Source of the DNA: Myxococcales bacterium
GTDB taxonomy: Bacteria; Myxococcota; UBA727; VGSZ01
Length of the DNA: 64,000 bases
Direction: 5' to 3'
NCBI GenBank assembly: GCA_023248635.1
Contig: JAHFED010000014.1
Span: 8,419 to 72,418, forward strand
Part shown: positions 8,986-62,632 of the stretch, piece after piece
How positions within the stretch are numbered: position 1 is the first letter of the stretch
How the letters are laid out: every line of letters starts with the position of its first letter
The notes under the pieces: generated by a model
The model's input: only the letters and a program-made list of their open reading frames with translations
Database searches by the model: none
Told to the model about the DNA's origin: nothing
Program-made: the position numbers and the translations under genes

Positions 8986-10448
8986 ACGTCGTCGTCCTTG
9001 CCGCTTGGCTCGTCGGCGCCGGCCCGCCTGCTGTGGCCACGGGCCCAGAGCCCGTGCGCACGGTGCAGCCGCCCCCGGCTCCCGAGCGCCCCTTTGTCGT
9101 GCCGGCGATCCAGACCGGTGCGGTGCCCGGCACCAAGCTCGACGTCGTGCTCGTCGAAGACCACAGCCTCCCCGCCGTGCAGTTGCGGCTGGTGTTTCCG
9201 ACGGGAAGCATCGGCGATCCAGGCGACAAGACTGGGCTCTCGGGGCTGTGCGCGCGCCTGGTGAACGAAGGCACCGCGCGCCTCGACAAGGTCGCCTTCG
9301 AAGGAGCACTGGCCGATCTGGCCGCCTCTGTCGACGTCGGTGCCGGCGTCGAGCAGTCCTACCTTTCGTTGCATTCGCTCAAGGAGACTTGGTTGCCCAC
9401 CCTCGATCTCGCCGTCGAGCTCGTCGCCAATCCGGGTTTGCGTGAGGACGATCTGCAGCGGGTGCGCGCGCGTTCCCTGGCCCAACTCCAACAGCAGAGG
9501 GGATCGGCCGCCGGCATCGCCCAACGCCTGCAGGGTCGCTTGACCTGGGGCAGCACTCATCCTTTGGGGGCCCTGGTGACCGAGGCCTCGCTGAGCGCGA
9601 TCGGCACCAAAGACTGCGCTGCGGTGATGGCGGGTTGGCGCCCCGATGGAGCCCGCGTCTTCGTCGCCGGCGACGTCAGCATGGCCGAGGTCACCGCCGC
9701 CTTGGCGAAACGCATCGAGCGCTTTCATTGGCGCGGTCAGACGACGAAGGCACCGTCGGTCCCGGCCGCGCTCTTTGATCCCTTGCTCGACGGAGCCACC
9801 GTGACCCTCGTCGACGTGCCCGGCGCCGAACAGTCCGTCGTCGTCGTCGCCGGCCTGGGACCTGCTCGTCAGGCCAGCGATCACGAGGCCACCGAGGTGA
9901 TGACGGCGATCTTGGGAGGCAGTTTCTCGTCGAGAATCAACATGAACTTGCGCGAAAAGAACGGTTACACCTACGGCGCCCGCGCCGGCATGAGCTACCT
10001 GAAGAAACGCGGATCGTTCACGACGTCGACGTCCGTACGCACCGATGTGACAGGCAAGGCTCTGCAGGAGATCAGCAACGAGCTCCAGGCGCTGCGCACC
10101 GGGCCCGTGAGCGACATCGAGGTGGCCCGCGAGCGCGATGGCAGCCTGCTCGCCTTTCCCGCCTCCTTTTCCACCTCGAGCGCGACCCTCGACAGCTGGA
10201 GCTCCCTCTTCTTCTACGACCTGCCCAAGGACACGCTGAAGAAGACTCCCGCGCGCTTGAAGGCCTTGACCAAGGCCGACGTCGAACGCGCCGCCCGCGG
10301 GCACGTGCCCAAGAGCTTCCGCCTCCTCGTCGTTGGCGACGCCAGCCGCATCCGCGCCGAAGTCGCCGCCCACGCTGCCGCCGGCACCTTCGGCAAGCCC
10401 GGCCCCGTCGTCGTCGTCGACGCTGACGGCCAGCCCCGCCTGCCCTGA
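8982..10448 (+). CDS. M16 family peptidase, second (probably non-catalytic) subunit
   Basis: ATGA overlap with the upstream M16 gene. Signal 'MNVVVLAAWLVGAGPPAVA'. The M16 fold motif region lacks HxxEH. Confidence 0.75.
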   Translation: MNVVVLAAWLVGAGPPAVATGPEPVRTVQPPPAPERPFVVPAIQTGAVPGTKLDVVLVEDHSLPAVQLRLVFPTGSIGDPGDKTGLSGLCARLVNEGTARLDKVAFEGALADLAASVDVGAGVEQSYLSLHSLKETWLPTLDLAVELVANPGLREDDLQRVRARSLAQLQQQRGSAAGIAQRLQGRLTWGSTHPLGALVTEASLSAIGTKDCAAVMAGWRPDGARVFVAGDVSMAEVTAALAKRIERFHWRGQTTKAPSVPAALFDPLLDGATVTLVDVPGAEQSVVVVAGLGPARQASDHEATEVMTAILGGSFSSRINMNLREKNGYTYGARAGMSYLKKRGSFTTSTSVRTDVTGKALQEISNELQALRTGPVSDIEVARERDGSLLAFPASFSTSSATLDSWSSLFFYDLPKDTLKKTPARLKALTKADVERAARGHVPKSFRLLVVGDASRIRAEVAAHAAAGTFGKPGPVVVVDADGQPRLP

Positions 10449-10605
10449 TCCTCTGGGAGGTCTGGTGCAGACCTCCCAGAGCGCCGGCAGAGCCGGACGC
10501 GGGCCCCCCCACCAACTCCGCGTTCCGCGGGCGCGCTTCACGCGCACCATCCCGCATCTTTCCCATCTCGGAACGCGGTCGAACATCAAGCGGACGCGGG
10601 ATCAG
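10447..10605 (+). repeat. Repeat B copy 1 (MITE-like structured element, 5'-truncated form)
   Basis: It begins TGATCC at the M16B stop codon, contains the GGAGGTCTG-gtg-CAGACCTCC hairpin, and ends GGGATCAG. Confidence 0.8.
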
Positions 10606-10625
10606 CTGCCCGCGCTGAGGGCAGA

Positions 10626-10750
10626 GAATTCATCGCCGCCAGGCGATGAACCTGTAGACAATTCACCGACACGCGAAGCGCTGTCGGTGAATTCATCCAC
10701 ACGCGAAGCGCTGTCGGTGATTCACGACAGCGCGGGTGTCGGTGAATTCA
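10626..10750 (+). repeat. Repeat C copy 1 (two-hairpin element, with the second hairpin duplicated)
   Basis: TTCATCGCC-gccag-GCGATGAA and GAATTCACCGACA-cgcgaagcgc-TGTCGGTGAATTC. Confidence 0.75.
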
Positions 10751-11551
10751 TGGGGCCCCTGCGAACCTGGCGAGCTCGGCATTGAACGCCACCATCTTTC
10801 GCTCGAGATAGGCAAGCGCGGCGTCGGAGCGCGCGAGCGTTCCTGCCCGGGCCATGAGCTCGAGCTCGTGGGCTGCGGACATCATCTCTTCAGCACCAAA
10901 GACGCTGGCGGAGCCTCTGAGGCTGTGGGCCACGTGTTCCAATGTCTTGGCCTCGCGCAGCGCGACGGCTCGTCGCAGATCGATCATTTTCCTCGGCGCT
11001 TCGTCTAGAAAAAGGCGCGCGACTTCCGCCAAGAGCTGTCGATCCCCATCCACCCTCTGCAGAGCCTCATCCCAGTCAATCGACAGACCCTCGTCGACGT
11101 TGGCGGGCTGCGCCGCGAGCTCAGGCAGCACGCGCTCGAAGGCGTCGAGCAGCTCGTTCAAGGCGAGCGGCTTGGTAACGTAGGCGTCCATTCCCGCGTC
11201 GATACAGCGCTCGCGATCGCCCTTCATCGCCGACGCCGTCAGCGCGATGATGGGCGTGTGCATGCCAGTCGCCGCATCGAGGGCGCGAAGGGCAGCGGTG
11301 GCCTCGAAGCCATCCATCTCGGGCATTTGCACATCGAGCAGCACCAGGTCGAAGGCTCCGGCGCGATAGGCGGCCACAGCTTCCTTGCCATTGTTGACGA
11401 CGTCGACGGAGCTGTGACCTTGGTTGCGCAGCAGCGCTACGGCCAGCTTCTGATTGACGATGTTGTCCTCGGCCAAGAGGATGCGCAGCGCGCGATGGCC
11501 CCGCGTTTTTCCGGGCGACGGGCGGCGCACCGTTGGAGCTCCGGTTTGCAC
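10748..11551 (-). CDS. Response regulator with a C-terminal Hpt domain
   Basis: 'RILLAEDNIVNQKLAVALLR...FDLVLLDVQMPEMDGFEATAALR...TPIIALTASAMKGDRERCIDAGMDAYVTKP' (REC domain). C-terminal 'HSLRGSASVFGAEEM' (Hpt domain). Start is a GTG. Confidence 0.7.
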   Translation of the reverse strand: MQTGAPTVRRPSPGKTRGHRALRILLAEDNIVNQKLAVALLRNQGHSSVDVVNNGKEAVAAYRAGAFDLVLLDVQMPEMDGFEATAALRALDAATGMHTPIIALTASAMKGDRERCIDAGMDAYVTKPLALNELLDAFERVLPELAAQPANVDEGLSIDWDEALQRVDGDRQLLAEVARLFLDEAPRKMIDLRRAVALREAKTLEHVAHSLRGSASVFGAEEMMSAAHELELMARAGTLARSDAALAYLERKMVAFNAELARFAGAP

Positions 11552-11824
11552 CGCGGCACAGACGGCTCCGAAGAGGTCGGACTCTGATTTCGACGGCGAC
11601 GCGAATGGACTTCAACCTCCGGCCGCCGGCGGCTTCGTGCATGAGCTTCTCGAGCTCTCGCAGGACCTCGCCGATGTGCTCGCCTTCGATCTCGACGTCC
11701 GTGATGTCCTGACGTGCTGGCATCTCCAGGACTCCTCCAATCTGCAAACACCATCGGCCATGGCACTGTGACCTGGATACCTGCCCAAACGGACAGGTTG
11801 GCCAGGGCGCATGGTGTGACGACG

Positions 11825-11995
11825 TCAGGTGAAGACGCGGAGCAGCTCCATGCGCGAGTCGGCGCCGAGCTTCTGCAGCAGATTGGCCTGGTGAAACTTG
11901 GCGGTCCGTTCCGTGATGCCGAGAGCGGTGCCGACCTCCTGCAGCCTGCGACCCAAGCCGATGATCTCGAGAATGGAGACCGAGACCGACGTCAT
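11825..11995 (-). CDS. Small LuxR/GerE-type HTH protein (56 aa)
   Basis: The ATG at 11995 and TGA at 11825 were hand-translated: 'MTSVSVSILEIIGLGRRLQEVGTALGITERTAKFHQANLLQKLGADSRMELLRVFT'. This ORF is absent from the track. Confidence 0.5.
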   Translation of the reverse strand: MTSVSVSILEIIGLGRRLQEVGTALGITERTAKFHQANLLQKLGADSRMELLRVFT

Positions 11996-12052
11996 CCTGG
12001 TCGAACTCGCCGTCGACGACGCGCCCCAGTCCCGCCAGTAGCAGGCCCGACC

Positions 12053-12553
12053 TCAAGCCTGCGACGACGTGTTCGCCTGCCAGATGCCATGGGTCCAAAA
12101 CGCCGCATACACCGACCAGAATCCATATACTGCGGCGAGCGCTGCAGCCGTGGCATCAAACGAAAGCAATACAGTGACTAACGCCGTAATCACCGCTGTG
12201 TAACCCATACTCTGATACACGGCCAGTTTGAATCTGTTCAGCTTCAAGAGCAGCGCATTCCACAGAATGTTCGAGATCATGATGACGGCGAGCAGGCCCA
12301 CCGCGGCGCTCCAGGCTTCGACGTGCTCGGTGCGCGCAGTGCTGACCATCAAGCGGTAGCCGAGCACCAACAGGAGCAGGGCATAGTAGACGCCAGCGAT
12401 GGCCAGCAGCCATACCGGCGCGGCAAATCTCGGCTGGCGCAGCTGGGGCCAACGGGTCTTCATGGCATCACCAACGCTCAGCGCTTCGACGACGTGTGCG
12501 ACGACGACCATCGAGAGAGCCCAGCCGAGACAAGGCCAATTGAGGTTGGGCAT
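12053..12553 (-). CDS. tspO: TspO/MBR (tryptophan-rich sensory protein) family membrane protein
   Basis: A Trp-rich membrane protein of about 166 aa with five TM segments: 'NILWNALLLKLNRF...VYGFWSVYAAFWTHGIW'. Confidence 0.55.
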   Translation of the reverse strand: MPNLNWPCLGWALSMVVVAHVVEALSVGDAMKTRWPQLRQPRFAAPVWLLAIAGVYYALLLLVLGYRLMVSTARTEHVEAWSAAVGLLAVIMISNILWNALLLKLNRFKLAVYQSMGYTAVITALVTVLLSFDATAAALAAVYGFWSVYAAFWTHGIWQANTSSQA

Positions 12554-12687
12554 CAGACCTTATCGTTGTGTATAAATTCCGCATTGTTCATGGCATATAA
12601 ACATCCGCACTTCATCCGCGTGTGGCGGGTTTTATATGCATCCGGTCCTGCCAATCGAAGCCGTCGATTGCGGGAACGATTGCCTCC
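12554..12687 (-). promoter_or_regulatory. AT-rich putative promoter region upstream of tspO
   Basis: 'TGTGTATAAATTCCGCATTGTTCATGGCATATAAACATCC...TTTTATATGCAT' in an otherwise 70% GC context. Confidence 0.3.
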
Positions 12688-13179
12688 TCAGCGCGCACGG
12701 GCGGCCAGGCGATCGGCACGGCGCCGCTCGGCATCAGAGTGTCGACGACGGTCTTCATCGCTGAGCAGCAGCAGCGGCGGAACGGCTTTGGGTCGGCCGG
12801 CGTCGTCGAGGGCGACGAAGGTGGCGTAGGCCTTCATGGTTTTCTTGATCTCGCCGGTGAGCGGGTTCTCGCTCCAGATGCTGACGCCGCACTCCATCGA
12901 GGTCTTGAAGGTCGCGTTGACCTGCCCCCGCAGGATCACGATGTGCCCGAGCTTGATGGGCAAGAGGAACTGCACAGCGTCGATGGCGGCGGTGACGACG
13001 ACGGATCGGCAGTGTCGCTGAGCGGCGATGGCCGCACAGATGTCGATCCACGAGACCACTTGGCCGCCGAAGACGTTGCCGAGGGAGTTGGCAAACTCGG
13101 GCAAGACGTGGTGGGTCATCTCGACGTGCGAACGCGCCACCGAAAAGAGCGGCGCGTCGGTCAACAGCTCGGTGCTCAT
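12688..13179 (-). CDS. Acyl-CoA thioesterase (hotdog fold, YciA-like)
   Basis: 'VLPEFANSLGNVFGGQVVSWIDICAAIAAQRH'. Confidence 0.7.
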   Translation of the reverse strand: MSTELLTDAPLFSVARSHVEMTHHVLPEFANSLGNVFGGQVVSWIDICAAIAAQRHCRSVVVTAAIDAVQFLLPIKLGHIVILRGQVNATFKTSMECGVSIWSENPLTGEIKKTMKAYATFVALDDAGRPKAVPPLLLLSDEDRRRHSDAERRRADRLAARAR

Positions 13180-13200
13180 AGGCCCCCTGTCAGCCTCCGA

Positions 13201-14352
13201 TCACTTCGGCGGGAAGGGCGGCGGTCCACCACCGGGCAGTGGAGGAGGTCCGGCCGGCGCGAAGAACTGAGCCAAAGCAGGAATGGTCGCTGCCGCCGTC
13301 CAGGCTGCTTGACCATTGGTCCAGGCCAAGGTGTCGGGCTTGATCTGACCCATGGTCACGAACTGCTTGACGACGTCCATCGCCAGCGGTCCGACGTTTT
13401 GGCCGTTGATGCCGAAGTACCACTGCGCTGCCGTCGGCATCGGGGGTGGGGCCACCATCGCCGGCTGCTGTTGGGCCTGGTTCATCATTTGGCCGGCCAT
13501 CGCCAGTCCCATGCCCATGTTCATGCCCGCGCCGGCGCCGCTGCCAGCGTTGCCCATGGCGTTGCCCATTTGCAGCTGTTGGTAGGCGCCCAGGTTCGGC
13601 GCCGGTCCCAGGCTCGCGCTGCCCAGAGCACCCATCGCCGAACGCTGATCCATTGCCTTCTGAACGCTCTCAGGAACGTTGATGTTCACGATCTGTACGG
13701 ACACCAAGCTGAGACCGTATTCGTCGTCGATCTGGGTCTTGACCTTCTCTTTGATTTCATCGGCGATTTTGCCGTAGCTCGCCAGCAGGTCGAGGGCGGG
13801 AATCTTGGCGGCGCCGATGACTTCGGCGACGGCCTGCTGCATGAGGCTGCGCATGACCTGGGCGAGCTCCTCGGTGTCGAAGACGCCGTCGGTGCCGACC
13901 AGCTCCTTCATCAGCGCCTTGCAGTCGACGCAGCGGATCGAATAGGTGCCGAAGGCGCCAACGCGGATCACCCCGAAGTCGGCGTCGCGCATCATCAGGG
14001 GCTGGGGCGTGCCCCACTTCATCGCCGGAATCACCTTCGTCGAGACGAAGTAGACCTCGGATTTAAAGGGAGAGTTGAAGCCGTGCTTCCAACCTTTCAG
14101 TGTCGAAAGAATCGGGATGTTCGCGGTCGTGAGCTCGTACATGCCTTCGGTGAAGACGTCGGCGATCTTGCCCTGGTCGACGAAGACAGCGGACTGGCCG
14201 GGGCGGACGGTGAGGCGCGCGCCGTTCTTGATCTCGTTTTGCCAGCGCGGGAAGCGCCACACGAGGGTGGAGCCGTTGGTGTCGTCCATCCATTCGATGA
14301 TGTCGACGAGCTCCGCCTTCATCTTGTCGCCCAACTTGTCGAAGAACCCCAT
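13201..14352 (-). CDS. SPFH/band-7 domain protein with a C-terminal GYF-like DUF4339 domain
   Basis: The N-terminal region resembles SPFH proteins. C-terminal 'WYFGINGQNVGPLAMDVVKQFVTMGQIKPDTLAWTNGQAAW'. Confidence 0.65.
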   Translation of the reverse strand: MGFFDKLGDKMKAELVDIIEWMDDTNGSTLVWRFPRWQNEIKNGARLTVRPGQSAVFVDQGKIADVFTEGMYELTTANIPILSTLKGWKHGFNSPFKSEVYFVSTKVIPAMKWGTPQPLMMRDADFGVIRVGAFGTYSIRCVDCKALMKELVGTDGVFDTEELAQVMRSLMQQAVAEVIGAAKIPALDLLASYGKIADEIKEKVKTQIDDEYGLSLVSVQIVNINVPESVQKAMDQRSAMGALGSASLGPAPNLGAYQQLQMGNAMGNAGSGAGAGMNMGMGLAMAGQMMNQAQQQPAMVAPPPMPTAAQWYFGINGQNVGPLAMDVVKQFVTMGQIKPDTLAWTNGQAAWTAAATIPALAQFFAPAGPPPLPGGGPPPFPPK

Positions 14353-14475
14353 CGCATACCTCCGCCCAGCCGACGCAGCTGTTGCAGGCCAGCATTAGCA
14401 GGGAACCCGGGGCCCGTGGGCGGCGTCTCAGGGTTCGACGCTGCTGTCGACGTCGAGCTTGGGTGCGGCAGTCGC

Positions 14476-16916: not shown

Positions 16917-17050
16917 CTCATCCGGGAAGATCTCGCGATTTCGGGGCGTCACGCGAGCGCAGCGCAGCCGAAGAATTGGGCCCGCAAGCGCAGACATATG
17001 CCCGAGCCGGGTGAAGCAGTTGGCGCAGCCGAAAATCAGCCGGATTCGGA

Positions 17051-17270
17051 ATCATCCCCGATCTCTCTGAACTTCGACCGCGGAGCGGTCTCGTTCAGAG
17101 CCGTCGGGGATGCTCTTCTGGGAGGTCTGGTACAGACCTCCCCCCGCGCCGGCGGAGCCGGACGCGGGGCCCCCCACCAACTCCGCGTTCCGCGGGCGCG
17201 CTCCACGCGCATCATCCCGCGTCTTTCCCATCTCAGAACGTGGTCGAACATCAATCGGACGCGGGATCAG
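17051..17270 (+). repeat. Repeat B copy 2 (full length)
   Basis: TGATCCCCGATCTC...GGAGGTCTGgtaCAGACCTCC...GGGATCAG. The PEBP stop codon lies in the terminal GATCA. Confidence 0.85.
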
Positions 17271-17746
17271 GTGCGTCGGGCCTCATCGCGTGAGCTGAGC
17301 TGCAGCTCATAGGTCCCCACCAATTGCGCCCCGCCCAGCACATGACCGCGCATGGCGAGCTCGAGCTGGGGCTTGGTCGGCGCCCCGATGTCGGGCAGCT
17401 GGGTGTCGAGGGCGAAGAGGGTGAACACGTAACGATGACGGCCCTTGGGCGGACAGGGTCCACTCCAGCCCACGCTGTTCCAACTGTTGGTTCCCTGCCG
17501 AGCACCGGTGGGCAGCGGCCCCGTCAAACCCTGTGGCAACGTCGTCGTCGTCGGTGGCAGGTTGTAGACGATCCAGTGCACCCACGAGCCATCTTGGGCA
17601 TCGAGGTCGTCGACGATGAGCGCCAGGCTTTTGACCCCGCTGATGTCGACGTCGATGAGCAGGGGCGGCGAGACGTTGCCGCCTTCGCAAGTGAAGCGTT
17701 GGGGAATCTCGCCCTGAGAGCGAAAAGCCGGTGAGGTGATGCGCAT
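17267..17746 (-). CDS. YbhB/YbcL family PEBP (Raf-kinase-inhibitor-like) protein
   Basis: ATG at 17746. 'MRITSPAFRSQGEIPQRFTCEGGNVSPPL...DGSWVHWIVYNLP...GWSGPCPPKGRHRYVFTLFALD'. Confidence 0.75.
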   Translation of the reverse strand: MRITSPAFRSQGEIPQRFTCEGGNVSPPLLIDVDISGVKSLALIVDDLDAQDGSWVHWIVYNLPPTTTTLPQGLTGPLPTGARQGTNSWNSVGWSGPCPPKGRHRYVFTLFALDTQLPDIGAPTKPQLELAMRGHVLGGAQLVGTYELQLSSRDEARRT

Positions 17747-17823
17747 GGCGAGCTCCTTTGTCGTCGGTGCTGGGGGCAACGAGAGAGACCCATCGAGACG
17801 CGCCAACGTGTCGAAGTTGATGG

Positions 17824-17949
17824 TTCAAGACGCTGACGCGTCTTGAAGTTCTGTTGGTTCAAGACGCTGGCGCGTCTTGAAGTTCTGCTGGTTCAAGACG
17901 CTGGCGCGTCTTGAAGTTCTCCTGGTTCAAGACGCTGGCGCGTCTTGAA
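17824..17949. repeat. Tandem array of four repeat A palindromes (34-bp period)
   Basis: 4x TTCAAGACGCTG(G/A)CGCGTCTTGAA separated by GTTCTGNTGG. Confidence 0.85.
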
Positions 17950-21136: not shown

Positions 21137-21175
21137 GGTCTCACCATACGTCTCGTCGTGACCGGCCGGGAATTC

Positions 21176-21250
21176 ACGGGCAGCGCTTCGCGTGTCGGTG
21201 AATTGTCCACAGGTTCAGCACCTGGCGGCGGTGAATCCTCGGCATTCCGC
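21176..21250 (-). repeat. Repeat C copy 3 (degenerate)
   Basis: Reverse complement of 'GAATGCCGAGGATTCACCGCCGCCAGG...CAATTCACCGACACGCGAAGCGCTGCCCGTGAATTC'. Confidence 0.6.
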
Positions 21251-30644: not shown

Positions 30645-30735
30645 GAATTCATCGCCGCCAGGCGATGAACCTGTAGACAATTCACCGACACGCGCAGCGC
30701 GTCGGTGAATTCACCGAGCGCGCTTCGCGTCGGTG
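30645..30735 (+). repeat. Repeat C copy 2
   Basis: 'GAATTCATCGCCGCCAGGCGATGAACCTGTAGACAATTCACCGACACGCGCAGCGCGTCGGTGAATTC'. Confidence 0.75.
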
Positions 30736-45871: not shown

Positions 45872-46087
45872 CTCATCCCGGGTCCGCTTGATGTTCGACC
45901 GCGTTTCGAGCTGGGAAGGACGCGGGATGATGCGCGTGAAGCGCGCCCGCGGAACGCGGAGTTGGTGGGGGGGCCCGCGTCCGGCTCCGCCGGCGTGGGG
46001 GGTCTGCATCAGACCTCCCAGAAGAGCATCCCCGACGGAGCTGAACGAGACCGCTCCACGATCGAAGTTCAGCGAGATCGGGGATCA
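45872..46087 (-). repeat. Repeat B copy 3
   Basis: Reverse orientation. The rsmI stop codon lies in the terminal GGGATCAG. Confidence 0.85.
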
Positions 46088-47176
46088 GTCTTCGATGGCC
46101 TCGAGGAGAGCGTCCATCGTCGACAGCGCCGCCAGCAGGGCCTTGGCTGCTTCGCCCACCTCGACCGGCGCGGGCAGGCTGGCGGGGCGGGCGAGCAAAC
46201 GCAGCAGGGCGTCGGCGCCGGCGATGTCGGTGCCAGCGGGAGCGCTGTCGTCGACGCTGCCGCCCCGCTGGGCCCGGGCCAGCTCGTCGCCGCGCAGCAG
46301 CGCGTGGGCGGCCTCGGCGAGCAGGCGGCCGGCGCGCTGCACCTCCCCTTTGCCCGACGTCGACGTGCTGGCCTGCAGCCGGGCGTAGGCCTCGCGCACC
46401 GAGATGCCCTGGGCGTGGGCCAACTGGCGCGCCTTCTCCTTGGGCGTGAGGGTGGGGTCACCGACCAGGGTGGCCAGATCGATGGACGCCGAGGTCTCTT
46501 GGCGGGGGGCGCCGGCTTCGACGACGACGACGACCTCGCCTTTTTCCACCAGCGCGGGCCTGAGCTCTTGCCCGAGCAGGCCGCGGTGGAAGGTCTCGTG
46601 CAGCTTGGTGAGCTCGCGGGCGACGACGACGCGGCGGGGTCCGCACAGCTCGAAGAGATCCGCCAACAGATCGCCAGTGCGGTTGGCGGCTTCGTAGACG
46701 ACGACGCCGAAGCCGGCCTGCAGGGCTCCTTTCACCAGCGTCTCGCGCTCTTTGCCCTTGCGCGGCAGGAAGCCCAAAAAAGCAAAGCGCGCGACGTCGA
46801 CGCCGGCCCCCATCAGGGCGGTGGTCAGCGCTGAGGCTCCGGGCAGCACCTCGACGTCGAGGCCGGCTTCGACCAGCGCTTCGACCAACCTCGAGCCCGG
46901 ATCGCTCACGCCCGGGCAGCCGGCGTCAGAGACGAAGCAGACGCGTTTCCCCTGTTCGAGCAGGGCCACGATCTCTGGAGCACGCTCGCGCTCGTTGTGG
47001 GCGTGCACGCTGAGCATCCGAGCCCCAGTGGCGCCGATGCGATCGAGCAGCGGGCGGGTGTGACGGGTGTCTTCGGCGCAAACGACGTCGGCTTCGCGCA
47101 GCGCAAGCTTGGCGCGCTCGGAGAGATCCCCCAGGTTGCCGATGGGAGTGGCGACGACGAGGAGCTTGGTCGTCAT
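46085..47176 (-). CDS. rsmI: 16S rRNA (cytidine1402-2'-O)-methyltransferase RsmI, with a C-terminal extension
   Basis: 'LLVVATPIGNLGDLSERAKLALREADVVCAEDTRHT'. Confidence 0.8.
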   Translation of the reverse strand: MTTKLLVVATPIGNLGDLSERAKLALREADVVCAEDTRHTRPLLDRIGATGARMLSVHAHNERERAPEIVALLEQGKRVCFVSDAGCPGVSDPGSRLVEALVEAGLDVEVLPGASALTTALMGAGVDVARFAFLGFLPRKGKERETLVKGALQAGFGVVVYEAANRTGDLLADLFELCGPRRVVVARELTKLHETFHRGLLGQELRPALVEKGEVVVVVEAGAPRQETSASIDLATLVGDPTLTPKEKARQLAHAQGISVREAYARLQASTSTSGKGEVQRAGRLLAEAAHALLRGDELARAQRGGSVDDSAPAGTDIAGADALLRLLARPASLPAPVEVGEAAKALLAALSTMDALLEAIED

Positions 47177-47259
47177 GCCTTCAACCTTGGAGAGGAAGCG
47201 CGTGGTTCAGGAGGCGCGCGCAGCACGGAATCGGCCGCCCGGCCGGAGGCCATAGAAGC

Positions 47260-47476
47260 CATCCCGGGTCCGCTTGATGTTCGACCGCGTTCCGAGTTGG
47301 GAAGGACGCGGGATGATGCGCGTGAAGCGCGCCCGCGGAACGCGGAGTTGGTCGGGGGGCCCGCGTCCGGCTCCGCCGGCGTGGGGGGAGGTCTGCATCA
47401 GACCTCCCTGAAGAGCATCCCCGACGGAGCTGAACGAGACCGTTCCGCGGTCGAAGTTCAGCGAGATCGGGGATCA
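47260..47476 (-). repeat. Repeat B copy 4
   Basis: Reverse orientation. The anti-sigma stop codon lies in the terminal GATCAC. Confidence 0.85.
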
Positions 47477-49240
47477 CTGTTCAGCGTCGACGCTGGCCGC
47501 CGCCGCCGCCGCCTTGGCCGGGGCCGTCGCCTCCGCCGCCGCCCGATCGCGAAGGGCCGTGGCCTTCAACCCATCCAAGCGCCGCTGGGCCTGCCCCCGA
47601 CGAGCGGCATCCTTGTTGGCCGGCGCCAGCGCATGCACCAAGAGTCGCTCGGCCAAGCGTCGATCACCGATGGCGAGGGCGGCGTCGGCGCCGGCGAGCA
47701 TCCCGTCGACGAGAACCGGGTCGGCGGCGTTGGCTTGCAAGAGTCGCGAGCCCACGCGGGCCGCGTCGCCGAAGCGCTTGGCCAACAGGAACGCCCGCGT
47801 TTGGGTCGACGCCGGCACCAGTCCGACGGCGCTGCCCCCGAGGGCTTCGGCGCGCCCAGCCAGGTCCGCGGCCTCCAGCGCTCGGCCCGCAGCAAGCTCC
47901 CGCTCGGCCGTCGTCACCAGCTCGCTGGCTTGATCGAGGCGTTTGCGGCGCTCGAGATCGTCGCGGGCCTCGGTCGGGGTCAAGAGGGGCTCACTGCTGT
48001 TCCCTTTGGGGGCCATCGACGACGCCGCCTTCTTCTTGGCCTCGGCCTTCTCCTTGTCGATTTGGGCCTGCTTGCGGCTCTTCATTTGCTCCAGAAAGGA
48101 GCGCGTGGAGTCGTCGGCGCTGCGGTAGCTGCCGCCGCCCGACACGCTGGTCGGCGGCGATGCCGGAGGTGCAACGACGGCCGGAACGGGCGGTGCCGTT
48201 GCAGCGGCGGCGGGAACAGCGGCGGGCGGTCCGCGCTGGGCCAGCGCACCGTCTGTGGGGCGAGCGACGGCCTTGGGTGCAGCATCGCTGTCGTCGTGGG
48301 CGGACGCTGGCGCGGCTTTGGGCGGCGGCGGCGCGGCATCTTTGGGACCCGGCTCCTTGGACGGCGCCAAGGGCCCGGCCGGCGGCAGGGGGGAGGGTGC
48401 TGGGCTCGTCGCCTCCGTCTCTGCACGCGCACCTTCGGCGGCCGAAGCGTGCAGGGGCGCTTTGGCGTCGGGTCGAGCCCCGGGCGCCTCGGCTTTCTTT
48501 GGCTTGGCCAGCTCTTCTTTCGGCTTGGCCACCTCTTCGCTCGCAGCGGGCACGATGAGACGATCGGCCTTGCCGCCGGCAGCCTCGCCCTCCCGCCGGG
48601 CGGCATCGGCGATCTTGGCGTCGGCGATCGGGGCGTCGGCGATCTGGGCGCTGCGGCTGGGCGGGACGGGTGCAGGAGGCGGGAGCGTCGGCGCGGCGGC
48701 AAAGGTCGTCGGCTGCAGATGGGAGCTGGCACTGGGCGGCACCAGGTCGGCGTTGCCCTGGTTGACGACCAGCAGCACAGCTGCCGCAGCGCCGACGAGG
48801 ACGCCGCCGCCCACCAACCACGACGAGAGGCGGGCCCACAGGGGGCGTGCTGTCTCTGGGGTCGCTTGGGGCTCGGCGGGGGAGGCGGCGACGGAGTGAC
48901 GGACGCGCCGGAACAGGGCGACGGCCTGCCGAATCTCGTTGGGCCGAGCAATCGTCTCGGCGTGCAAAATCGCTTCGAGCAGGTGGGGAGGCGGCACATC
49001 GAGCAGCTCGTCCCGCCCGAAACGAGCATCTTGGTCGAGGAACCCTCGCACCGCCTGCAGCCCCTCGACCTCGGCGAGCAGCGCCGGATCGCCGCGCATC
49101 CGCGTCTCGAACTCCGCCCGCAGGTGGGCGTCCAAGGTGCCGTCGACGTAAGCGAGCACCAAGGGCGACGCTTCCTCGTGCGCGGCAGAGATCTGGTCCG
49201 GCGGGCCAGTCTCGGTGTCAGGAGGGGAGCGGTCGGTCAC
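47474..49240 (-). CDS. Anti-sigma factor (zinc-finger-like N-domain, TM, Ala/Pro-rich linker, TPR-like C-terminus)
   Basis: 'LVLAYVDGTLDAHLRAEFETRM'. A TM helix at about residue 135. Downstream of an ECF sigma gene. Confidence 0.55.
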   Translation of the reverse strand: MTDRSPPDTETGPPDQISAAHEEASPLVLAYVDGTLDAHLRAEFETRMRGDPALLAEVEGLQAVRGFLDQDARFGRDELLDVPPPHLLEAILHAETIARPNEIRQAVALFRRVRHSVAASPAEPQATPETARPLWARLSSWLVGGGVLVGAAAAVLLVVNQGNADLVPPSASSHLQPTTFAAAPTLPPPAPVPPSRSAQIADAPIADAKIADAARREGEAAGGKADRLIVPAASEEVAKPKEELAKPKKAEAPGARPDAKAPLHASAAEGARAETEATSPAPSPLPPAGPLAPSKEPGPKDAAPPPPKAAPASAHDDSDAAPKAVARPTDGALAQRGPPAAVPAAAATAPPVPAVVAPPASPPTSVSGGGSYRSADDSTRSFLEQMKSRKQAQIDKEKAEAKKKAASSMAPKGNSSEPLLTPTEARDDLERRKRLDQASELVTTAERELAAGRALEAADLAGRAEALGGSAVGLVPASTQTRAFLLAKRFGDAARVGSRLLQANAADPVLVDGMLAGADAALAIGDRRLAERLLVHALAPANKDAARRGQAQRRLDGLKATALRDRAAAEATAPAKAAAAAASVDAEQ

Positions 49241-53428: not shown

Positions 53429-53436
53429 GGTCGCAG

Positions 53437-56356: not shown

Positions 56357-56364
56357 GGCCCAAT

Positions 56365-57366
56365 CTAGCGCGGCGCAGCTGCCTTTGGCCCCCCCTGAGG
56401 CATCGCGATCTCAGCCAGGGCCGCTGCCGCCCGACTGGGGGAGCGGCGTCCGGATCGAACGTCGGCGACGACGCCGGCGACGGCGGCCCTGAGCTCGGGG
56501 TGTTGGAGCCCCCGGCGCACCAGCTCGGTCTCGAAGCAGCGCCAGAGCCACTGCTCGGCCTGTTGGGCTCGCCGCTGGGCCAGGGCGTCGCCCAGAGAGG
56601 CCCGGTGGGTTTCGATGGCGCTCCAGACCTCGACGACGCCGCGGTTTTCGATCGACGAGCAGAGCAGCACCGGCGGCACCCAGCTCTTGCCGTGGTGCAG
56701 CAGCTGGCCGGCGTTGCGGTAGTGCGCGGCGGTCTCTTGGGCTTCGATCGCCCGGCTGCCATCGGCCTTGTTGACGACGACGACGTCGACGAGGTCGAGG
56801 ATCCCGCGCTTTTGGCCCTGCAGGTCGTCGCCAGCACCGGGCGCCACCAGCAAGACGAAGGTGTCGGTGAGGGATTGCACCGCGTGCTCGCTCTGGCCCA
56901 CACCCACGGTTTCGACGACGACGACGTCGAAGCCGGCGGCCTCGCACAACAACAAGGCTTCCCGGGTGTGGGCGGCCACACCGCCCAGGGCTCCCGACGA
57001 GGGCGAGGGGCGAATGAAGGCCCGGGGATTCTGCGACAGCTGCTCCATGCGGGTTTTGTCGCCGAGAATCGATCCGCCCGTGGTGGGCGACGAAGGATCG
57101 ATGGCCAACACCGCCAGGCTCTTGCCTGCCGCCGTGAGGTGCGCGCCCAGGGTCTCGATGAAAGTGGATTTGCCGACGCCCGGCGTGCCCGAAAGCCCCA
57201 CCCGCACCGCGCCACCGGTGTGCCCGGCGACGGCGTCGAGCAGGGCTTGGGCGCGGGCCTGGTCATCGTCGCGGGTGCTCTCGGCCAGGGTGATGCCCCG
57301 CGCCAGCGCCAGCCGTTCGCCGTCGATGATGCGTCGTCCCAGGTCGTCGACGTCGATCCTGCTCAA
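56365..57366 (-). CDS. meaB: Methylmalonyl-CoA-mutase-associated GTPase MeaB/ArgK
   Basis: 'GLSGTPGVGKSTFIE', 'LAIDPSSPTTGGSILGDKTRM', 'VVVETVGVGQSE', 'NKAD'. Confidence 0.8.
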   Translation of the reverse strand: MSRIDVDDLGRRIIDGERLALARGITLAESTRDDDQARAQALLDAVAGHTGGAVRVGLSGTPGVGKSTFIETLGAHLTAAGKSLAVLAIDPSSPTTGGSILGDKTRMEQLSQNPRAFIRPSPSSGALGGVAAHTREALLLCEAAGFDVVVVETVGVGQSEHAVQSLTDTFVLLVAPGAGDDLQGQKRGILDLVDVVVVNKADGSRAIEAQETAAHYRNAGQLLHHGKSWVPPVLLCSSIENRGVVEVWSAIETHRASLGDALAQRRAQQAEQWLWRCFETELVRRGLQHPELRAAVAGVVADVRSGRRSPSRAAAALAEIAMPQGGPKAAAPR

Positions 57367-58778
57367 CGCAGCAGCTCACCCGCTCGGGCGCGCTTGACGA
57401 AGTGCCCACCGCCCTGAAGCGCCAGGTTGCCTTTGTCGACGACGACGCGGCCGCGGGACAGCACGATCTCGGTGAAGCCCGTGACTTCGACGCCTTCGAA
57501 GGTGTTGTAGTCGACCCGCATGTGATGGGTCGCTTTATTGTGGATTGAAATGCGCTCTTTTCGCTCGGGATCGAAGACGACGATGTCGGCGTCGGAGCCC
57601 GGCGCGATGGTCCCCTTCTTGGGCCACAAGCCAAAGGTGCGGGCGGCGTTGGTCGAGGTGATCTCCACGAAGCGCTGCACGGAGATCTTCTTGCCGACGA
57701 CGCCGGCGCTGTAGATGAGGCTAAAGCGGTTCTCGACGCCAGGAGCGCCGTTGGGGATCTTTCTGAAGTCGTCTTTGCCGAGCTCTTTTTGGCCCTTGAA
57801 GCAGAAGGGACAGTGGTCGGTGGCGACGGAGCTCAGGTCGTTGAACTTCAGGCCGCGCCACAGCGAGTCCTGGTTCCACTTCTCGCGCAGCGCCGGCGTC
57901 ATGACATATTTTGCGCCTTCGAAGTCCGGCAACTCATAATACGACTGATCGAGCAAGAGATACTGCGGACAGGTTTCGGCGCAGACGTCGACGCCGCGGC
58001 CGCGGGCCCTCTTCACTTCTTCGAGGGCGTCGTGGCTCGAGAGGTGAACGATGTAGAGCGGCACTTGCGCGCATTCGGCGATGGCAATGGCCCGGTGCAC
58101 ACCTTCGGCTTCCATGCGGGTCGGGCGCGTGAGGGCATGGTAGATCGGCGCCGTTTTGCCGTCTTTGATTGCGCCCTTGATGATCTCGTCAATGACGATA
58201 CCGTTTTCGGCGTGCATGCAGATGCGGGTGCCGTTTTCGCCGGCCTGCCGAAACGCGCGATACAAAGTAGCGTCGTCGACGTAGAGCACCCCGGGATAGG
58301 CCATGAAAAGCTTATAAGAGGTGACGCCTTCGGTGGCCAAGCGTTCCATCTCTGAAAGTCGCTCATCTGGCATGTCCGTAACAATCATGTGAAAGGCGTA
58401 GTCGATGGTGGCTTTGCTAAAGGCCTTCTTGTGCCAGGTCTCGAGGCCCTTGAGCGTGCTCTCGCCTTTGCTCTGGATGGCGAAGTCGATGAGCGTCGTG
58501 GTGCCGCCAAAGGCCGCCGCGATGGTGCCGCTTTCGAAGTCGTCCGCTGACGTGGTTCCGCCGAAGGGCATGTCGAGGTGGGTGTGGGGATCGATGCCGC
58601 CCGGCAGCACCAGCTTGTTGCGCGCATCGATGACGCGGTCGGCGGCTGCGGCGGCGGGCAGCGACTTTGCGAGGTCTTTGCCCAACGCGGCGACGCTCTC
58701 GCCCACGATGAAGACATCGCCGACGAAGTCGCTGTCGGCGGTGACGATGCGGCCACCCTGAATCAACACGCTGCCCAT
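57363..58778 (-). CDS. Dihydropyrimidinase / D-hydantoinase (cyclic amidohydrolase)
   Basis: 'LVLPGGIDPHTHLDMPFGGTTSADDFESGTIAAAFGGTTTLIDFA'. It overlaps the meaB start. Confidence 0.8.
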   Translation of the reverse strand: MGSVLIQGGRIVTADSDFVGDVFIVGESVAALGKDLAKSLPAAAAADRVIDARNKLVLPGGIDPHTHLDMPFGGTTSADDFESGTIAAAFGGTTTLIDFAIQSKGESTLKGLETWHKKAFSKATIDYAFHMIVTDMPDERLSEMERLATEGVTSYKLFMAYPGVLYVDDATLYRAFRQAGENGTRICMHAENGIVIDEIIKGAIKDGKTAPIYHALTRPTRMEAEGVHRAIAIAECAQVPLYIVHLSSHDALEEVKRARGRGVDVCAETCPQYLLLDQSYYELPDFEGAKYVMTPALREKWNQDSLWRGLKFNDLSSVATDHCPFCFKGQKELGKDDFRKIPNGAPGVENRFSLIYSAGVVGKKISVQRFVEITSTNAARTFGLWPKKGTIAPGSDADIVVFDPERKERISIHNKATHHMRVDYNTFEGVEVTGFTEIVLSRGRVVVDKGNLALQGGGHFVKRARAGELLR

Positions 58779-58857
58779 GGGACCTCCGGTTCGGGGGCCG
58801 GTAGAAGACGCGTTTTCGACGCCGGCTGCAAGCTACAGCGGGTGCAACCCGGGCTGC

Positions 58858-59078
58858 GGATCATCCCCGATCTCGTTGAACTTCGACCGCGGACCGGTCT
58901 CGTTCATCTCCGTCGGGGATGCCCTTCTGGGAGGTCTGGTGCAGACCTCCCCCCGCGCCGGCGGAGCCGGACGCGGGGCCCCCCACCAACTCCGCGTTCC
59001 GCCGGCGCGCTTCACGCGCATCATCCCGCGTCTTCCATCTCGGAACGCGGTCGAACATCAAGCGGACGCGGGATCAGA
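58858..59078 (+). repeat. Repeat B copy 5
   Basis: Full-length copy. Its terminal GATCAG holds the stop codon of the downstream minus-strand gene. Confidence 0.85.
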
Positions 59079-61017
59079 GCAGGCGCAAGAAGCGCAGCAG
59101 CCACGTTTGCTCCTCCGCCGTCAACGCGCGGCCCTCAGTGCCTTCGTGGGTCAACTGGGCAAGGCCGCCGACGTCGACGATGCGCACTTGTTCCAGCAGC
59201 TCGGGCAGGTTGCGGGCCCGACCGCTGGTGAGCAGCGGGGTCTTTCTCCCGATCCCCCGCAGCGAGGACGGGCGGGCGCCGTCGGGGTGCACCCTGGGCC
59301 GCACGCCGGTGTCTTCGCGCCCCGCGCGGCCAAAGACCAAAGCCCCGTGAAACAAAGCGGGAACGACGTCGACGTCGGCGACGCTGGCCTTGTCATCGGC
59401 AAAGACCCGGGCCGCGTGGCACGACACGCAATAGCGGTTGAAATCCGCCAAACCCAGGGCTTCGTCGTCGTCGAGCTTGGTGCGGCCCCAGGCCCGCGCG
59501 TTCGGCGGCGGATCGAAGCTGGCGAAGAAGGCAATCATCGCGCGCCGCAGGTCGAGGGGAGCGATGTCGACGACACCATTGCCCTTGCTGCTGAACCAGG
59601 GCGACTGCGGGCTACGGGCATTGGCCACCCTGAACTCGGCGTGCACCATGACTGCGACGCTGCGATCGAGGGCCCGGGTGAACAGAGGAGGGTTCTGAAA
59701 GAGGCCCCAAAGTGGCTTCGTCGTCGCCGTCACCGCCCGACCTTCGGCGTCGACGCGACCGGTGTTGTGAATGCGCCCGTCGATCCCACCCCCCAGGTGA
59801 CAGCTCTCGCAGGTGAAGCGGGAGAGCGCGCCCTCGGAGCTCTGCTGGGGCGCCATCATCGTCGTGAACACCAGGCGCTCGCCCACCCGCTCCGGGCCCG
59901 GAGGTGCGGCGCCGAGGTCGATGCGCGTGCCGCCGACGTCGACGGCGTCTTCGAGGGCGCTGGCCACCACGCGCCTGCCGTTGTTGGTCACGGCGGCATT
60001 CACCCCAAACGAGGAGTCCCCGGTCGAGATCAGGCTCCCGGTGGCGGCGTCGACGACGGCGAAGCGCCCCGAGCCTGCCCCCCAGACGACGACGTTGGCG
60101 CCTTCGCGCAGCAGGGCTTTGCCGTTGACGACGCCGCGCTCGGAGAGGTTGAGCCGCCAGCCGACTTCGACGCCAGCAGCCTCGAAGCGCAGGCCAAACA
60201 AGAACGAGTCGATGTTTCCAAAGGATCCTCCCGATCGATCGAGGGGATGGTCCTCGATGCCCGACACCACGACGTCGACGCCGTCGGCACCCTCGGTGGC
60301 CACCTGCGCAAAGAGCAGTCCATCGAACTGCTGCTGCTGGGCCGAAGAACAGACCGGCAGGCCCTGGTCGTCGAGCGGGAAGACGACGACGCGGTGCTCC
60401 AGCGACGACAAGGCCACGAGGTGGTGCGGCAGGCGCTGCAGCGACGAAATGCCGAGCCCCACGCGACAGCGGCGGTCTTCGGCCTTGCCGTGCCCCCAGT
60501 CCTTCAGGACGACGACGTCGCCATCGAGGGTGCCGACGTCGACAAGCGTTCCATCGGTCGCCAGCGCGCTCACGCCCCAAAAGAAACCGGGTTGTCGACG
60601 GGGGAGGAGGTCACGGGACACTGTGCCGCCGACGACGGAGAAGTACTGCAGGCGGCCCGCCACCGCGCTGCCGACGACGATGTGGTCGCCGTGCATGGCC
60701 AATGCGCTCGGAAAGGGCTCCGTCTGAGCGCTTGCGCCCCCGACCAACTGCAGGCGATCTCGTCCCTGCAGCAACACGACCACTTGCTCGCCAGCCAACC
60801 CCAGCGCCACGGGGTCGGCCCCGTGATCGGCGCGGCCCCCAGCGAGCAGCCGCGCGCGCACCGCCGGACGCAGCGACTGCTCGTAGGACTCCAATCCCGC
60901 CGCCTCCGCGTCGTGCTCGTCCACGGCCACGACAGGGCCGCTGGTGGGTGCAGGCACACAGGCGCCCACCAGAGCGACGACGACGGCCACGAGGGCAGGG
61001 GCGCTTGTCCGGATCAC
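59074..61017 (-). CDS. Lipoprotein with an N-terminal beta-propeller-like region and a C-terminal di-haem cytochrome c peroxidase-family domain
   Basis: SD AAGGAG then GTG at 61017. Lipobox 'VVALVGAC'. CESCH and CVSCH. 'PSSLRGIGRKTPLLTSGRARNLPELLEQV' (CCP signature). Confidence 0.6.
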   Translation of the reverse strand: MIRTSAPALVAVVVALVGACVPAPTSGPVVAVDEHDAEAAGLESYEQSLRPAVRARLLAGGRADHGADPVALGLAGEQVVVLLQGRDRLQLVGGASAQTEPFPSALAMHGDHIVVGSAVAGRLQYFSVVGGTVSRDLLPRRQPGFFWGVSALATDGTLVDVGTLDGDVVVLKDWGHGKAEDRRCRVGLGISSLQRLPHHLVALSSLEHRVVVFPLDDQGLPVCSSAQQQQFDGLLFAQVATEGADGVDVVVSGIEDHPLDRSGGSFGNIDSFLFGLRFEAAGVEVGWRLNLSERGVVNGKALLREGANVVVWGAGSGRFAVVDAATGSLISTGDSSFGVNAAVTNNGRRVVASALEDAVDVGGTRIDLGAAPPGPERVGERLVFTTMMAPQQSSEGALSRFTCESCHLGGGIDGRIHNTGRVDAEGRAVTATTKPLWGLFQNPPLFTRALDRSVAVMVHAEFRVANARSPQSPWFSSKGNGVVDIAPLDLRRAMIAFFASFDPPPNARAWGRTKLDDDEALGLADFNRYCVSCHAARVFADDKASVADVDVVPALFHGALVFGRAGREDTGVRPRVHPDGARPSSLRGIGRKTPLLTSGRARNLPELLEQVRIVDVGGLAQLTHEGTEGRALTAEEQTWLLRFLRLL

Positions 61018-61121
61018 GAGGGGTGACTCCTTTTCCTTCAGTCGTCTCCGAGGCCGTGCCCGGAGATTCAACCAACCCCCCGTCGCCCGGCCCAGCTGGA
61101 ACGACGAGAAGGAGCAGAGAC

Positions 61122-61622
61122 ATGTACCCAGGATTCTTCCACTGGTGGAAAGAAGCACAACGCCACGCCAGCGAACACCACGGAGCCCACGCCTCCTGCG
61201 GACCAGCCGCCTGCGGACCAGGCGGACGTCGACAACGGCACCGCGGTCCCGACGATCACGAAGCAGCAGGCGAAGACGGCGGCGGCTTCGGCGTCCGACG
61301 ACCCTTGCGCTTCATGGCCTGGAAGCTTGAGCTCGACGAAAACCAGGTCGACAAGCTCGCAGCCATCCTCGCCGATCTGAAAACCGAAAGAGCCCAGGCC
61401 GCCGTCGACCACCAACGCTCGGTGGGCACTTTCGCCGATGTGCTCTCCCCCGAAACCTTCGACAAAGACGCTGCCAGAGCCGCCGCCAACGCCCGCGTCG
61501 TCACCGCCGAACGCCTGCGCGACGCCGTCGTCAAAGCCCTCGAGAAGACCCACGCCCTTCTGACCCCCGACCAGCGCAAGCAGCTGGCCTACCTGCTGCG
61601 CTCCGGCCAACTGACGATTTGA
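61122..61622 (+). CDS. Spy/CpxP/ZraP-family (LTxxQ motif) protein with a His-rich N-terminus. The start is uncertain; an alternative ATG lies at 61314.
   Basis: SD AAGGAG then ATG at 61122. 'LDENQVDKLAAIL' and 'LLTPDQRKQLAYLL' (two LTxxQ-type motifs). 'HWWKEAQRHASEHHGAH'. Confidence 0.45.
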   Translation: MYPGFFHWWKEAQRHASEHHGAHASCGPAACGPGGRRQRHRGPDDHEAAGEDGGGFGVRRPLRFMAWKLELDENQVDKLAAILADLKTERAQAAVDHQRSVGTFADVLSPETFDKDAARAAANARVVTAERLRDAVVKALEKTHALLTPDQRKQLAYLLRSGQLTI

Positions 61623-61870
61623 TCCCCGATCTCGCTGAACTTCGACCGCGGAGCGGTCTCGTTCATCGCCGTCGGGGATGCTCTTCTGGGAGGTCTGGTG
61701 CAGACCTCCCCCCGCGCCGGCGGAGCCGGACGCGGGGCCCCCACCAACTCCGCGTTTCGCGGGCGCGCTTCACGCGCATCATCCCGCGTCTTTCCCATTG
61801 GCGTCTTCGACGCCGTCGTCGATGTCGTCGCTCTCGGAACGCGGTCGAACATCAAGCGGACGCGGGATGA
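61619..61870 (+). repeat. Repeat B copy 6, with a roughly 35-bp internal insertion carrying an extra hairpin
   Basis: It begins TGATCCCCGATC, forming the stop codon of the preceding gene, and ends GGGATGAG. The insertion is GGCGTC-ttcg-GACGCC. Confidence 0.85.
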
Positions 61871-61988
61871 GGCTTGGGCTGGTGGTATTTGATTCTGCGA
61901 ATCACCACCGATTCATCCTTTGGAAGAGACGAAAAAGCGCCTCGACCCCAACCGCCCCAGCCCCGATGGCACGAGGACGCCAGCAAGA

Positions 61989-62441
61989 TCAGACGCCGTC
62001 GACGAGGCGATCGAACATGGGTCCGGTCTCCTGCAGCCGCTGGGCGAGGCGCTCGGTCACGTTCATCAACAACTTGATGCAGGCCTGCGGCCGCTGTTTC
62101 TGCAGGTTCAAAAAGTCACGGCGTGGGATTTCAATGACGCCGACCGCCGTCTTGGCACGGGCCGTGACACGCCGCGGACCGGGTTGCAGCAGAGAGAGCT
62201 CGCCGAAAACGTCGGGGGCAGAGAGGGCGCTCAGCTCGCGCAAGGTGCCGTCGCGCTCGACGGAGATGGAGACCTGCCCCGCCACGAGCAAGAAGGCGCT
62301 TTCGCCGTGCATCTTCTCGACGAAGATCGGGTTTCCGACGTCGACCTGCCGGGCGATGCACACCGTCTCGATGATCCGGATGCCATCCGGGGAAAAGCCG
62401 GCGAGCAGCGGGCTCTGCTCAAGGTAGGGAAACAGATCCAT
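61989..62441 (-). CDS. Single cNMP-binding-domain protein (150 aa)
   Basis: ATG at 62441. 'GESAFLLVAGQVSISVERDGTLRELSALSAPDVFGELSLL'. Confidence 0.6.
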   Translation of the reverse strand: MDLFPYLEQSPLLAGFSPDGIRIIETVCIARQVDVGNPIFVEKMHGESAFLLVAGQVSISVERDGTLRELSALSAPDVFGELSLLQPGPRRVTARAKTAVGVIEIPRRDFLNLQKQRPQACIKLLMNVTERLAQRLQETGPMFDRLVDGV

Positions 62442-62597
62442 CGCGCTCCCACCCAGCCACGGCCACGGACGGGCCACGGGCACCGACACGACAGGCGCAG
62501 CCCCGGAAGCAAGGCACACTACCGGCTCGCCAAGGCCGAGGGCAAATAAGACTGCAGCCACCATGGCGTCGAAGTCCAGCGTCGGTGGCACAGCGAC

Positions 62598-62632
62598 CGG
62601 GCGGCGGTCGAACATCAAGCGGACGCGGGATA
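62598..62632 (+). repeat. Repeat B fragment (3' end only)
   Basis: GGCGGTCGAACATCAAGCGGACGCGGGATAAG. Confidence 0.6.

Follow-up and report, generated by a model that had tools for sequence, protein, structure and literature searches.

Family B, a GC-rich MITE-like repeat family flanked by TNA triplets and found at gene stop codons in a Myxococcota-like genome

[quoted passage not shown] In this work, we describe a repeat family, named family B, which resembles them in all these respects, and which was analyzed in a 64,000-nucleotide stretch of Myxococcales DNA (contig JAHFED010000014.1 of assembly GCA_023248635.1), hereafter the window. Family B departs from the known bacterial MITEs in being GC-rich rather than AT-rich, in featuring a 3-bp duplication of the type TNA (N being any base) rather than TA, and in having termini turned into hairpins by internal inverted copies of themselves.

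Elements of other types share some of these features. The IS1031/IS427-type members of the IS5 family of insertion sequences, the PIF/Harbinger-PHIS elements and the Tourist-type MITEs have, like family B, a 3-bp target-site duplication with T and A as outer bases. The ends of IS5-family elements begin with GA or GG, while family B termini begin with TCCC; moreover, the TNA is preceded by a base other than C, and the palindrome CTNAG is thus not the target. The IS5-related PHIS superfamily typically has duplications of 3 bp, TWA in PIF/Harbinger and C-TNA-G in NuwaII (PMC4482050), and a 3-nt target has been noted for IS5 elements of the IS1031 group (PMC2516522). REP/BIME/REPIN sequences, with their associated RAYT, are also hairpin-rich extragenic repeats, located just past stop codons in both orientations; in contrast to them, family B is a fixed, collinear 212-bp unit with 28-bp TIRs and duplicated triplets, and has no conserved head tetranucleotide. 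Finally, the mycobacterial MIRUs are intergenic repeats, the ends of which overlap the stop codon of a flanking gene, but they are direct tandem units of 40-100 bp, oriented with the operon and containing small open reading frames (ORFs) that couple translation, whereas family B consists of one inverted-repeat element, which occurs in both orientations and lacks a conserved reading frame.

The results presented below make it likely that family B belongs to the non-autonomous DNA transposons, as a MITE which inserts at TNA triplets and is moved in trans. Ungapped repeat finding within the window linked all seven loci listed for the family in a first reading of the sequence (the original prediction), and neither motif counts nor an nhmmer search, based on a family B profile from ten copies, found any other in the 64 kb. 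A 19-mer from the 3' end has 7 matches in the window, against 0.12 expected, while a pattern for the central stem and a 30-mer from the left end have 6 and 5, respectively, with 0 expected in both cases. The seven loci had been described as six full copies and one fragment; five copies (c2 to c6) are indeed full, but the sixth (c1) lacks the 60-nt 5' hairpin, and the seventh (f7) is a 30-nt fragment of the right end. Multiple alignments define a consensus of about 219 nt; the element body measures 209-212 bp (245 bp in c6), corresponding to about 216-218 bp when the duplicated triplets are included.

Additional copies were identified outside the window. Two translations of the element, used as queries against protein databases containing 15 billion sequences, retrieved eleven spurious proteins encoded by family B sequences, a number so small for a collection of that size as to indicate that the family is restricted to one lineage. 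Those that could be mapped led to four further copies, on contigs of the same organism. The first, L026, lies at 1397-1614 of its contig; the second, L027 (9947-10125), carries two internal deletions; the third, L028A, is a single copy lacking its first 20 nt and split by a nested element into two parts (L028, 9780-9830 and 9992-10139); the fourth, L028B (L028, 19214-19335), is truncated at the 3' end. Spurious ORFs indicate at least 7 more copies (P0002, P0003, P0004, P0006, P0129, P0130 and P0131); P0008, also evaluated as an additional copy, proved to be c4. The spurious 237-aa ORF of P0129 begins in a family B copy and continues into two stretches which look like translated tRNA genes (GIRTLE... 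and GIRTPD...FESGAFSHSA): judging from this translation, one family B copy appears to lie beside a pair of tRNA genes.

The ends of the element had originally been described as 7-bp TIRs, TGATCCC/GGGATCA, a definition which conflates a 3-bp TNA duplication with a 28-bp TIR, the TGA/TCA part being a direct repeat. The true ends lie inside the triplets, and are formed by the 28-bp imperfect TIR TCCCNNNTCNNNNTGANNTTCGACCGCG, which reads TCCCCGATCTCGCTGAACTTCGACCGCG at the left end and, in reverse complement, TCCCGCGTCCGCTTGATGTTCGACCGCG at the right end. When the TIR was searched as a degenerate pattern, 11 matches were found, at both ends of the copies, against 0 expected. The two ends also share a sub-terminal block, TTCGACCGCG, and each of its occurrences in the window falls within a copy end; the block is probably the transposase-binding site. 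Each terminus can pair with an internal inverted copy of itself (4-22 of the consensus with 43-61, 164-174 with 207-217), and both termini are thus hairpins, spanning consensus positions 4-61 and 164-217. The minimum free energy fold contains all the hairpins listed in the original prediction: the 60-nt one, the central GGGAGGTCTG-NNN-CAGACCTCCC, CCGGC-GGA-GCCGG and GCGCG-CTTCA-CGCGC. No ORF is conserved, as reading frames are broken between copies by indels of 1, 2, 3 and 34 nt. The ORFs reported over the element in a six-frame translation had been regarded as artefacts, and the frame shifts produced by these indels bear this out. A coding role, or a read-through extension of the upstream genes, was also considered and discarded: the frame following the TGA stays open throughout the consensus, but is broken by indels in c3, c5 and c6.

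The three bases immediately outside TCCCC...GGGA were compared in the seven full copies, c2 to c6, L026 and L027. Left and right triplets are TCA/TCA in c2 and c5, TGA/TGA in c3, c6 and L026, TGA/TGG in c4 and TAA/TCA in L027. The TNA pair is therefore perfect in five of the seven, the others showing one third-base mismatch and one difference in the middle base, which is equal on both sides in 6 of 7 cases (p about 0.02, by our estimate). The middle base varies even within subfamilies, as in the sister copies c2, flanked by TCA, and L026, flanked by TGA. These flanks are direct, not inverted, repeats, since with inverted ones a left TCA would be paired with a right TGA; they are therefore a target-site duplication. 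Furthermore, the triplet distal to the gene cannot be the stop codon of any gene, because the frame would need to cross the element, and its match to the proximal triplet thus leaves duplication as the only explanation. The base following the right-hand triplet is a G in 7 out of 9 copies. From the 3-bp TNA duplication we infer that the mobilizing enzyme would be a DDE transposase of the IS5/PIF-Harbinger (PHIS) type which, encoded elsewhere in the genome, would insert family B into T-N-A, usually with a G next, and duplicate the triplet. A 2-bp TA duplication of the IS630 type was also evaluated, and does not match family B.

Hairpins at both termini are also what would be expected of a mosaic of REP/REPIN-like units, or of a palindromic element derived from IS200/IS605, moved by a single-strand Y1 transposase (RAYT/TnpA) which would recognize the terminal hairpins and insert the element adjacent to TNA. 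The location of the copies just 3' of genes, as for REPs, and the constant short motif ahead of the left end are in line with this proposal, as is the finding that the element nested in L028A shares the left-end hairpin design of family B. Y1 transposition, however, leaves the target unduplicated, while in family B the left and right flanks covary in their middle base in six of the seven copies, across subfamilies; the ends form true inverted repeats along 28 bp, no GTAG-type REP head is found, and the window contains no Y1 transposase gene. A Y1 origin of family B appears, on balance, quite improbable.

All six long copies in the window abut the TGA stop codon of a gene supported either by third-position GC content or by Pfam, confirming the stop-codon association which had been noticed at first. 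The stop is abutted by the left end of the element in c1, c3, c4 and c6, and by the right end in c2 and c5. Copy c1 (10446..10604, plus strand), 5'-truncated and lacking the 60-nt left hairpin together with the left TIR, starts on TGA 10446-10448, the stop of an M16 peptidase gene (8841..10448), and has TCA at 10602-10604. Full-length copy c2 (17052..17269, plus strand) has its body at 17055-17266, with the left TIR at 17055-17082 and the right one at 17239-17266; its right TCA (17267-17269) provides the TGA stop of a PEBP gene on the minus strand (17267..17806). Two full-length copies, both on the minus strand, surround rsmI (46085..47176, minus strand). One is c3 (45873..46087), whose central stem has lost 3 nt and whose left TGA, at 46085-46087 in plus-strand coordinates, is the rsmI stop; the other is c4 (47259..47476), located 83 nt upstream of the rsmI start, whose left TGA (47474-47476) serves as stop for a minus-strand gene (47474..49240) lying downstream of an ECF sigma factor gene. 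Copies c5 (58861..59076) and c6 (61620..61870) are also full length, and both lie on the plus strand: the right TCA of the former (59074-59076) is the stop of a minus-strand gene (59074..61158), and the left TGA of the latter (61620-61622) is the stop of an LTXXQ/Spy-like gene. A private 34-nt insertion of c6 (61798-61831), TTGGCGTCTTCGACGCCGTCGTCGATGTCGTCGC, contains a small palindrome of its own, GGCGTC-TTCG-ACGCC. As to the names originally given to the abutted genes, Pfam supports M16 peptidase, PEBP, TP_methylase/RsmI and LTXXQ, but not 'anti-sigma factor' and 'propeller-CCP', for which no Pfam match was obtained; the gene with the former name adjoins the ECF sigma gene.

Outside the window, the right end of L027 coincides with the stop of a radical-SAM gene and the truncated left edge of L028A with a TAA stop, while L026 sits 11 nt beyond a stop codon, in another frame. 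Copies at stop codons are thus 6 out of 6 in the window, and about 8 out of 9 overall; when every known copy is considered, TGA prevails over TCA at the left end by about 10 to 3.

Stop codons are legitimate targets, because each TNA triplet reads TGA or TAA on one of the two strands, TCA and TTA being their complements. A census of TNA sites in the window, copies excluded, counted 1285 sites in coding sequences, 157 intergenic sites other than stops and 46 stop sites, the latter making up about 23% of the tolerable, non-coding ones. In the six occupied spacers, the fraction of TNA sites provided by stops is 2/11, 2/6, 2/2, 1/3, 1/1 and 2/5; multiplied together, these give 0.008. According to the proposed mechanism, an insertion at a stop would regenerate the stop by duplication, leaving the gene unharmed, while insertions at the approximately 1300 coding TNA sites of the window would, we infer, be purged by selection, and the short spacers of DNA with a 66.5% GC content would offer few other TNA sites. 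The target, combined with short, GC-rich spacers, explains much, but not all, of the coincidence with stops; a further preference, or selection, acting beyond the TNA target is likely. The preference for TGA-containing sites put forward in the original prediction remains the best fit to the data, in the sharper form of a TNA duplication which restores the stop.

A number of points weigh against such a transposon. The evidence for duplication comes from just seven full copies, and 6 out of 6 copies at stops exceed what is predicted by a random choice among the available TNA sites (0.008 to 0.0001). Both 5'-truncated copies, c1 and L028A, end precisely on the stop of the upstream gene, which neither cut-and-paste transposition nor random deletion would predict, and L028A is flanked by TAA/TAA in spite of having lost its first 20 nt. 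The hairpins at both termini, already discussed, are on the same side of the balance. A precise empty site was not recovered at orthologous loci, and no autonomous partner carrying these TIRs was found in the window and in the further loci examined. The frequency of hits at stops, the truncated copies ending on stops and the bias of the left end for TGA would all fit a family which truly homes to stop sites, with a wider stop context being read by the transposase, or else one whose gene-end copies are retained because of some benefit of the hairpin array to the upstream mRNA; we consider either case unlikely. A survey of the literature on TNA-duplicating bacterial MITEs located at stop codons found nothing specific.

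Imperfect palindromes able to form hairpins and located directly after stop codons also call to mind sites of site-specific recombination, of the attC type, known from integron cassettes, or of the dif type, recognized by Xer, which would mark the 3' ends of cassettes. The GCTGAAC/GTTCAGC pair of family B faintly resembles the core and inverse core of attC sites, the consensus of which is RYYYAAC/GTTRRRY, but both core-like motifs miss this consensus at the same position. The neighboring genes are housekeeping ones, such as nuoG, nuoH, rsmI and ABC transporters, rather than cassettes; no integrase is present, and copies are found in both orientations. The probability that family B represents sites of this type is, in our opinion, minimal. 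A retron was also considered, and rejected.

The tendency of the copies to lie at gene ends raises the question of whether family B functions at the RNA level. The copies might be functional modules, acting as 3'-UTR hairpins which stabilize the mRNA, block exonucleases or attenuate read-through, or as a source of small RNAs; REP/BIME elements act as such 3'-UTR modules in E. coli. All copies in the window start or end at a stop, and hence would be co-transcribed with the gene; the prevalence of TGA at the left end would agree with such a role. Both strands fold better than shuffled sequences (z = -7.4 and -6.2), a property which is not specific to an RNA role, being expected of any inverted-repeat element. 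One pair, G16-C49, is changed on both sides, to U-A, in the sister copies c2 and L026. Small RNAs derived from MITEs, and MITEs located in 3'-UTRs, have been documented in Coxiella (PMC5896051, PMC10969869).

In contrast, conservation of the stems, noted in the original prediction, is no evidence of selection: RNAalifold detected 0 compensatory pairs, its covariation penalty was positive, and the one pair changed on both sides, out of 76, is within the range obtained by shuffling (73/500 and 186/500), although the power of covariation analysis is low for copies which are 90-97% identical. Stems are commonly broken, by the 3-nt deletion in c3, by a GG>TT change in L026 and by the deletions in L027, and the orientation with respect to the abutted gene is mixed, four copies in the window being co-directional and two opposite. 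Close relatives carry no family B copy at the rsmI locus. A role as transcribed terminator, suggested at first, finds no support, since no terminator-like site, with a hairpin and a U-tract, coincides with family B hairpins in the 45-64 kb part of the window, each stem being followed by C- or G-rich sequence. The same holds for the suggested small non-coding RNA, in view of the mixed orientation, of the decay of copies by deletion and nested insertion, and of the lack of Rfam membership, no matches being obtained at gathering thresholds. At more permissive settings, weak matches to snoZ206 and to BjrC80 (RF02354, a small RNA of Bradyrhizobiaceae) were found, the latter over its full length at 17043-17194 and 58851-59003, overlapping c2 (22.6 bits) and c5 (14.7 bits), against a cutoff of 80; the BjrC80 alignment was judged to reflect generic GC hairpins, and both were discarded. 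Taken together, these data make a dedicated RNA function doubtful, while a REP-like stabilizing effect on upstream mRNAs, as a secondary property, is possible.

Relationships among copies are those expected of a MITE. Family B copies, 90-97% identical to one another, fall into three subfamilies, {c2, L026}, {c3, c4} and {c5, c6, L027, L028B}, a structure which points to successive rounds of copying. Decay is evident in the deletions of L027, in the 3' truncation of L028B and in the interruption of L028A by another MITE. At the rsmI locus of a relative whose RsmI is 90% identical (L029), a spacer of just 14 nt takes the place of c4 and its adjoining 83 nt, and unrelated DNA, instead of c3, comes after the rsmI TGA; a profile search of 21 kb from this relative found no family B copy. 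Similarly, a relative with 85% RsmI identity has a 54-nt spacer at the rsmI locus and no family B copy. These absences hold at the level of the lineage, the flanks being too diverged, or non-syntenic, for empty sites to be defined at base precision. No transposase domain was detected among the approximately 50 genes of the window, nor at the further loci examined.

The element which interrupts L028A (L028, 9833-9990) is a second, unrelated MITE-like sequence of about 160 bp, delimited by ATCCCTGGATTCAGTTGA... and ...TCAACTGATCTCTGGGAT (ATCCC...GGGAT). It features a near-perfect 19-bp hairpin at the left end, with the same architecture as family B, and its flanks best fit, by sequence reasoning, a TA duplication within CTAG, of the IS630-like type. 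No copy of it is found in the window.

The remaining family B locus in the window, f7 (62604..62633, plus strand), consists of the right TIR alone, with one mismatch, followed by TAA, and lies in a 75-nt spacer between two divergent genes, 61989..62567 on the minus strand and 62643..63845 on the plus strand. The fragment sits 9 nt upstream of the ATG of the latter, a lipoprotein-like gene, and on the opposite strand provides an in-frame ATG (MFDR...) upstream of the former, a cNMP-binding gene. It could thus contribute promoter or 5'-UTR sequence to a neighboring gene. In the same lipoprotein-like gene, a (GAGGGCGAAGGA)n tract with a 12-nt period, at 62700-62900, encodes a long Gly-Glu repeat right after the lipobox cysteine; a short-read contig, L025, ends within this tract.

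The window genes are ordinary chromosomal ones, including nuoG, nuoH, rsmI, an ECF sigma factor, MacB-type ABC transporters, M16 peptidases, MeaB and others. The same DNA was found, at 99.9-100% identity, in the ENA assemblies ERZ27276474 and ERZ27280021 and in the Logan run SRR14366783, and in these further samples of the strain the family B insertions are the same. The nearest named relatives of its RsmI belong to metagenome-assembled genomes labelled Deltaproteobacteria, Myxococcota or Myxococcales, the closest being GCA_030685175.1 (90% identity). No family B sequence was found by blastn in plasmids or by a scan of viral contigs. JGI metagenomes gave 0 matches to the 24-base 3' end and 16 to the degenerate 28-bp TIR, all occurring by chance in coding DNA, while a scan of genome contigs with a 3' motif of 18 specified bases gave 24 chance matches in unrelated phyla, none of them with family B. 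To judge by sequence similarity, family B has no detectable relative in the collections searched (plasmids, Rfam, JGI metagenomes, viral contigs).

Other small repeats accompany family B. Repeats of a third family, about 70 nt long, are formed by two hairpins, GAATTCATCGCC-GCCA-GGCGATGAAC and AATTCACCGACA-CGCGAAGCGC-TGTCGGTGAATT, and are found at 10614-10711, at 21170-21250, in inverted orientation, and at 30645-30700; the first of these copies lies directly beside c1, within the same convergent spacer. In addition, a REP-like palindromic unit, GGTTCAAGACGCTGGCGCGTCTTGAAGTTCT, is repeated in tandem as four 34-nt units at 17818-17949, is present in inverted orientation at 7408-7446, and occurs as a single unit at L026 1350-1385, beside the family B copy of that contig; the tandem array and the L026 unit share spacers with family B.

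In kind, family B is a standard bacterial MITE, as originally proposed for a dispersed, non-coding sequence found in both orientations; it is a new family, and its coincidence with stop codons is largely a by-product of the target. At a practical level, it generates spurious ORF calls, with eight or more such proteins present in public databases, and breaks the short-read assemblies of this lineage: the Logan contig L035, 1262 nt long, extends beyond rsmI by no more than 113 nt upstream and 57 nt downstream, and its coordinates place its ends inside c4 and c3. A new mechanism would be involved only if homing to stop sites, or an RNA function, were true. More generally, thanks to a 3-bp TNA duplication, a transposon can settle on a stop codon with no harm to the gene, giving the misleading impression that the element supplies the stop. 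For the organism itself, an uncultured, Myxococcota-like bacterium, the repeats described here represent a burst of small repeats of several families, restricted to this lineage.

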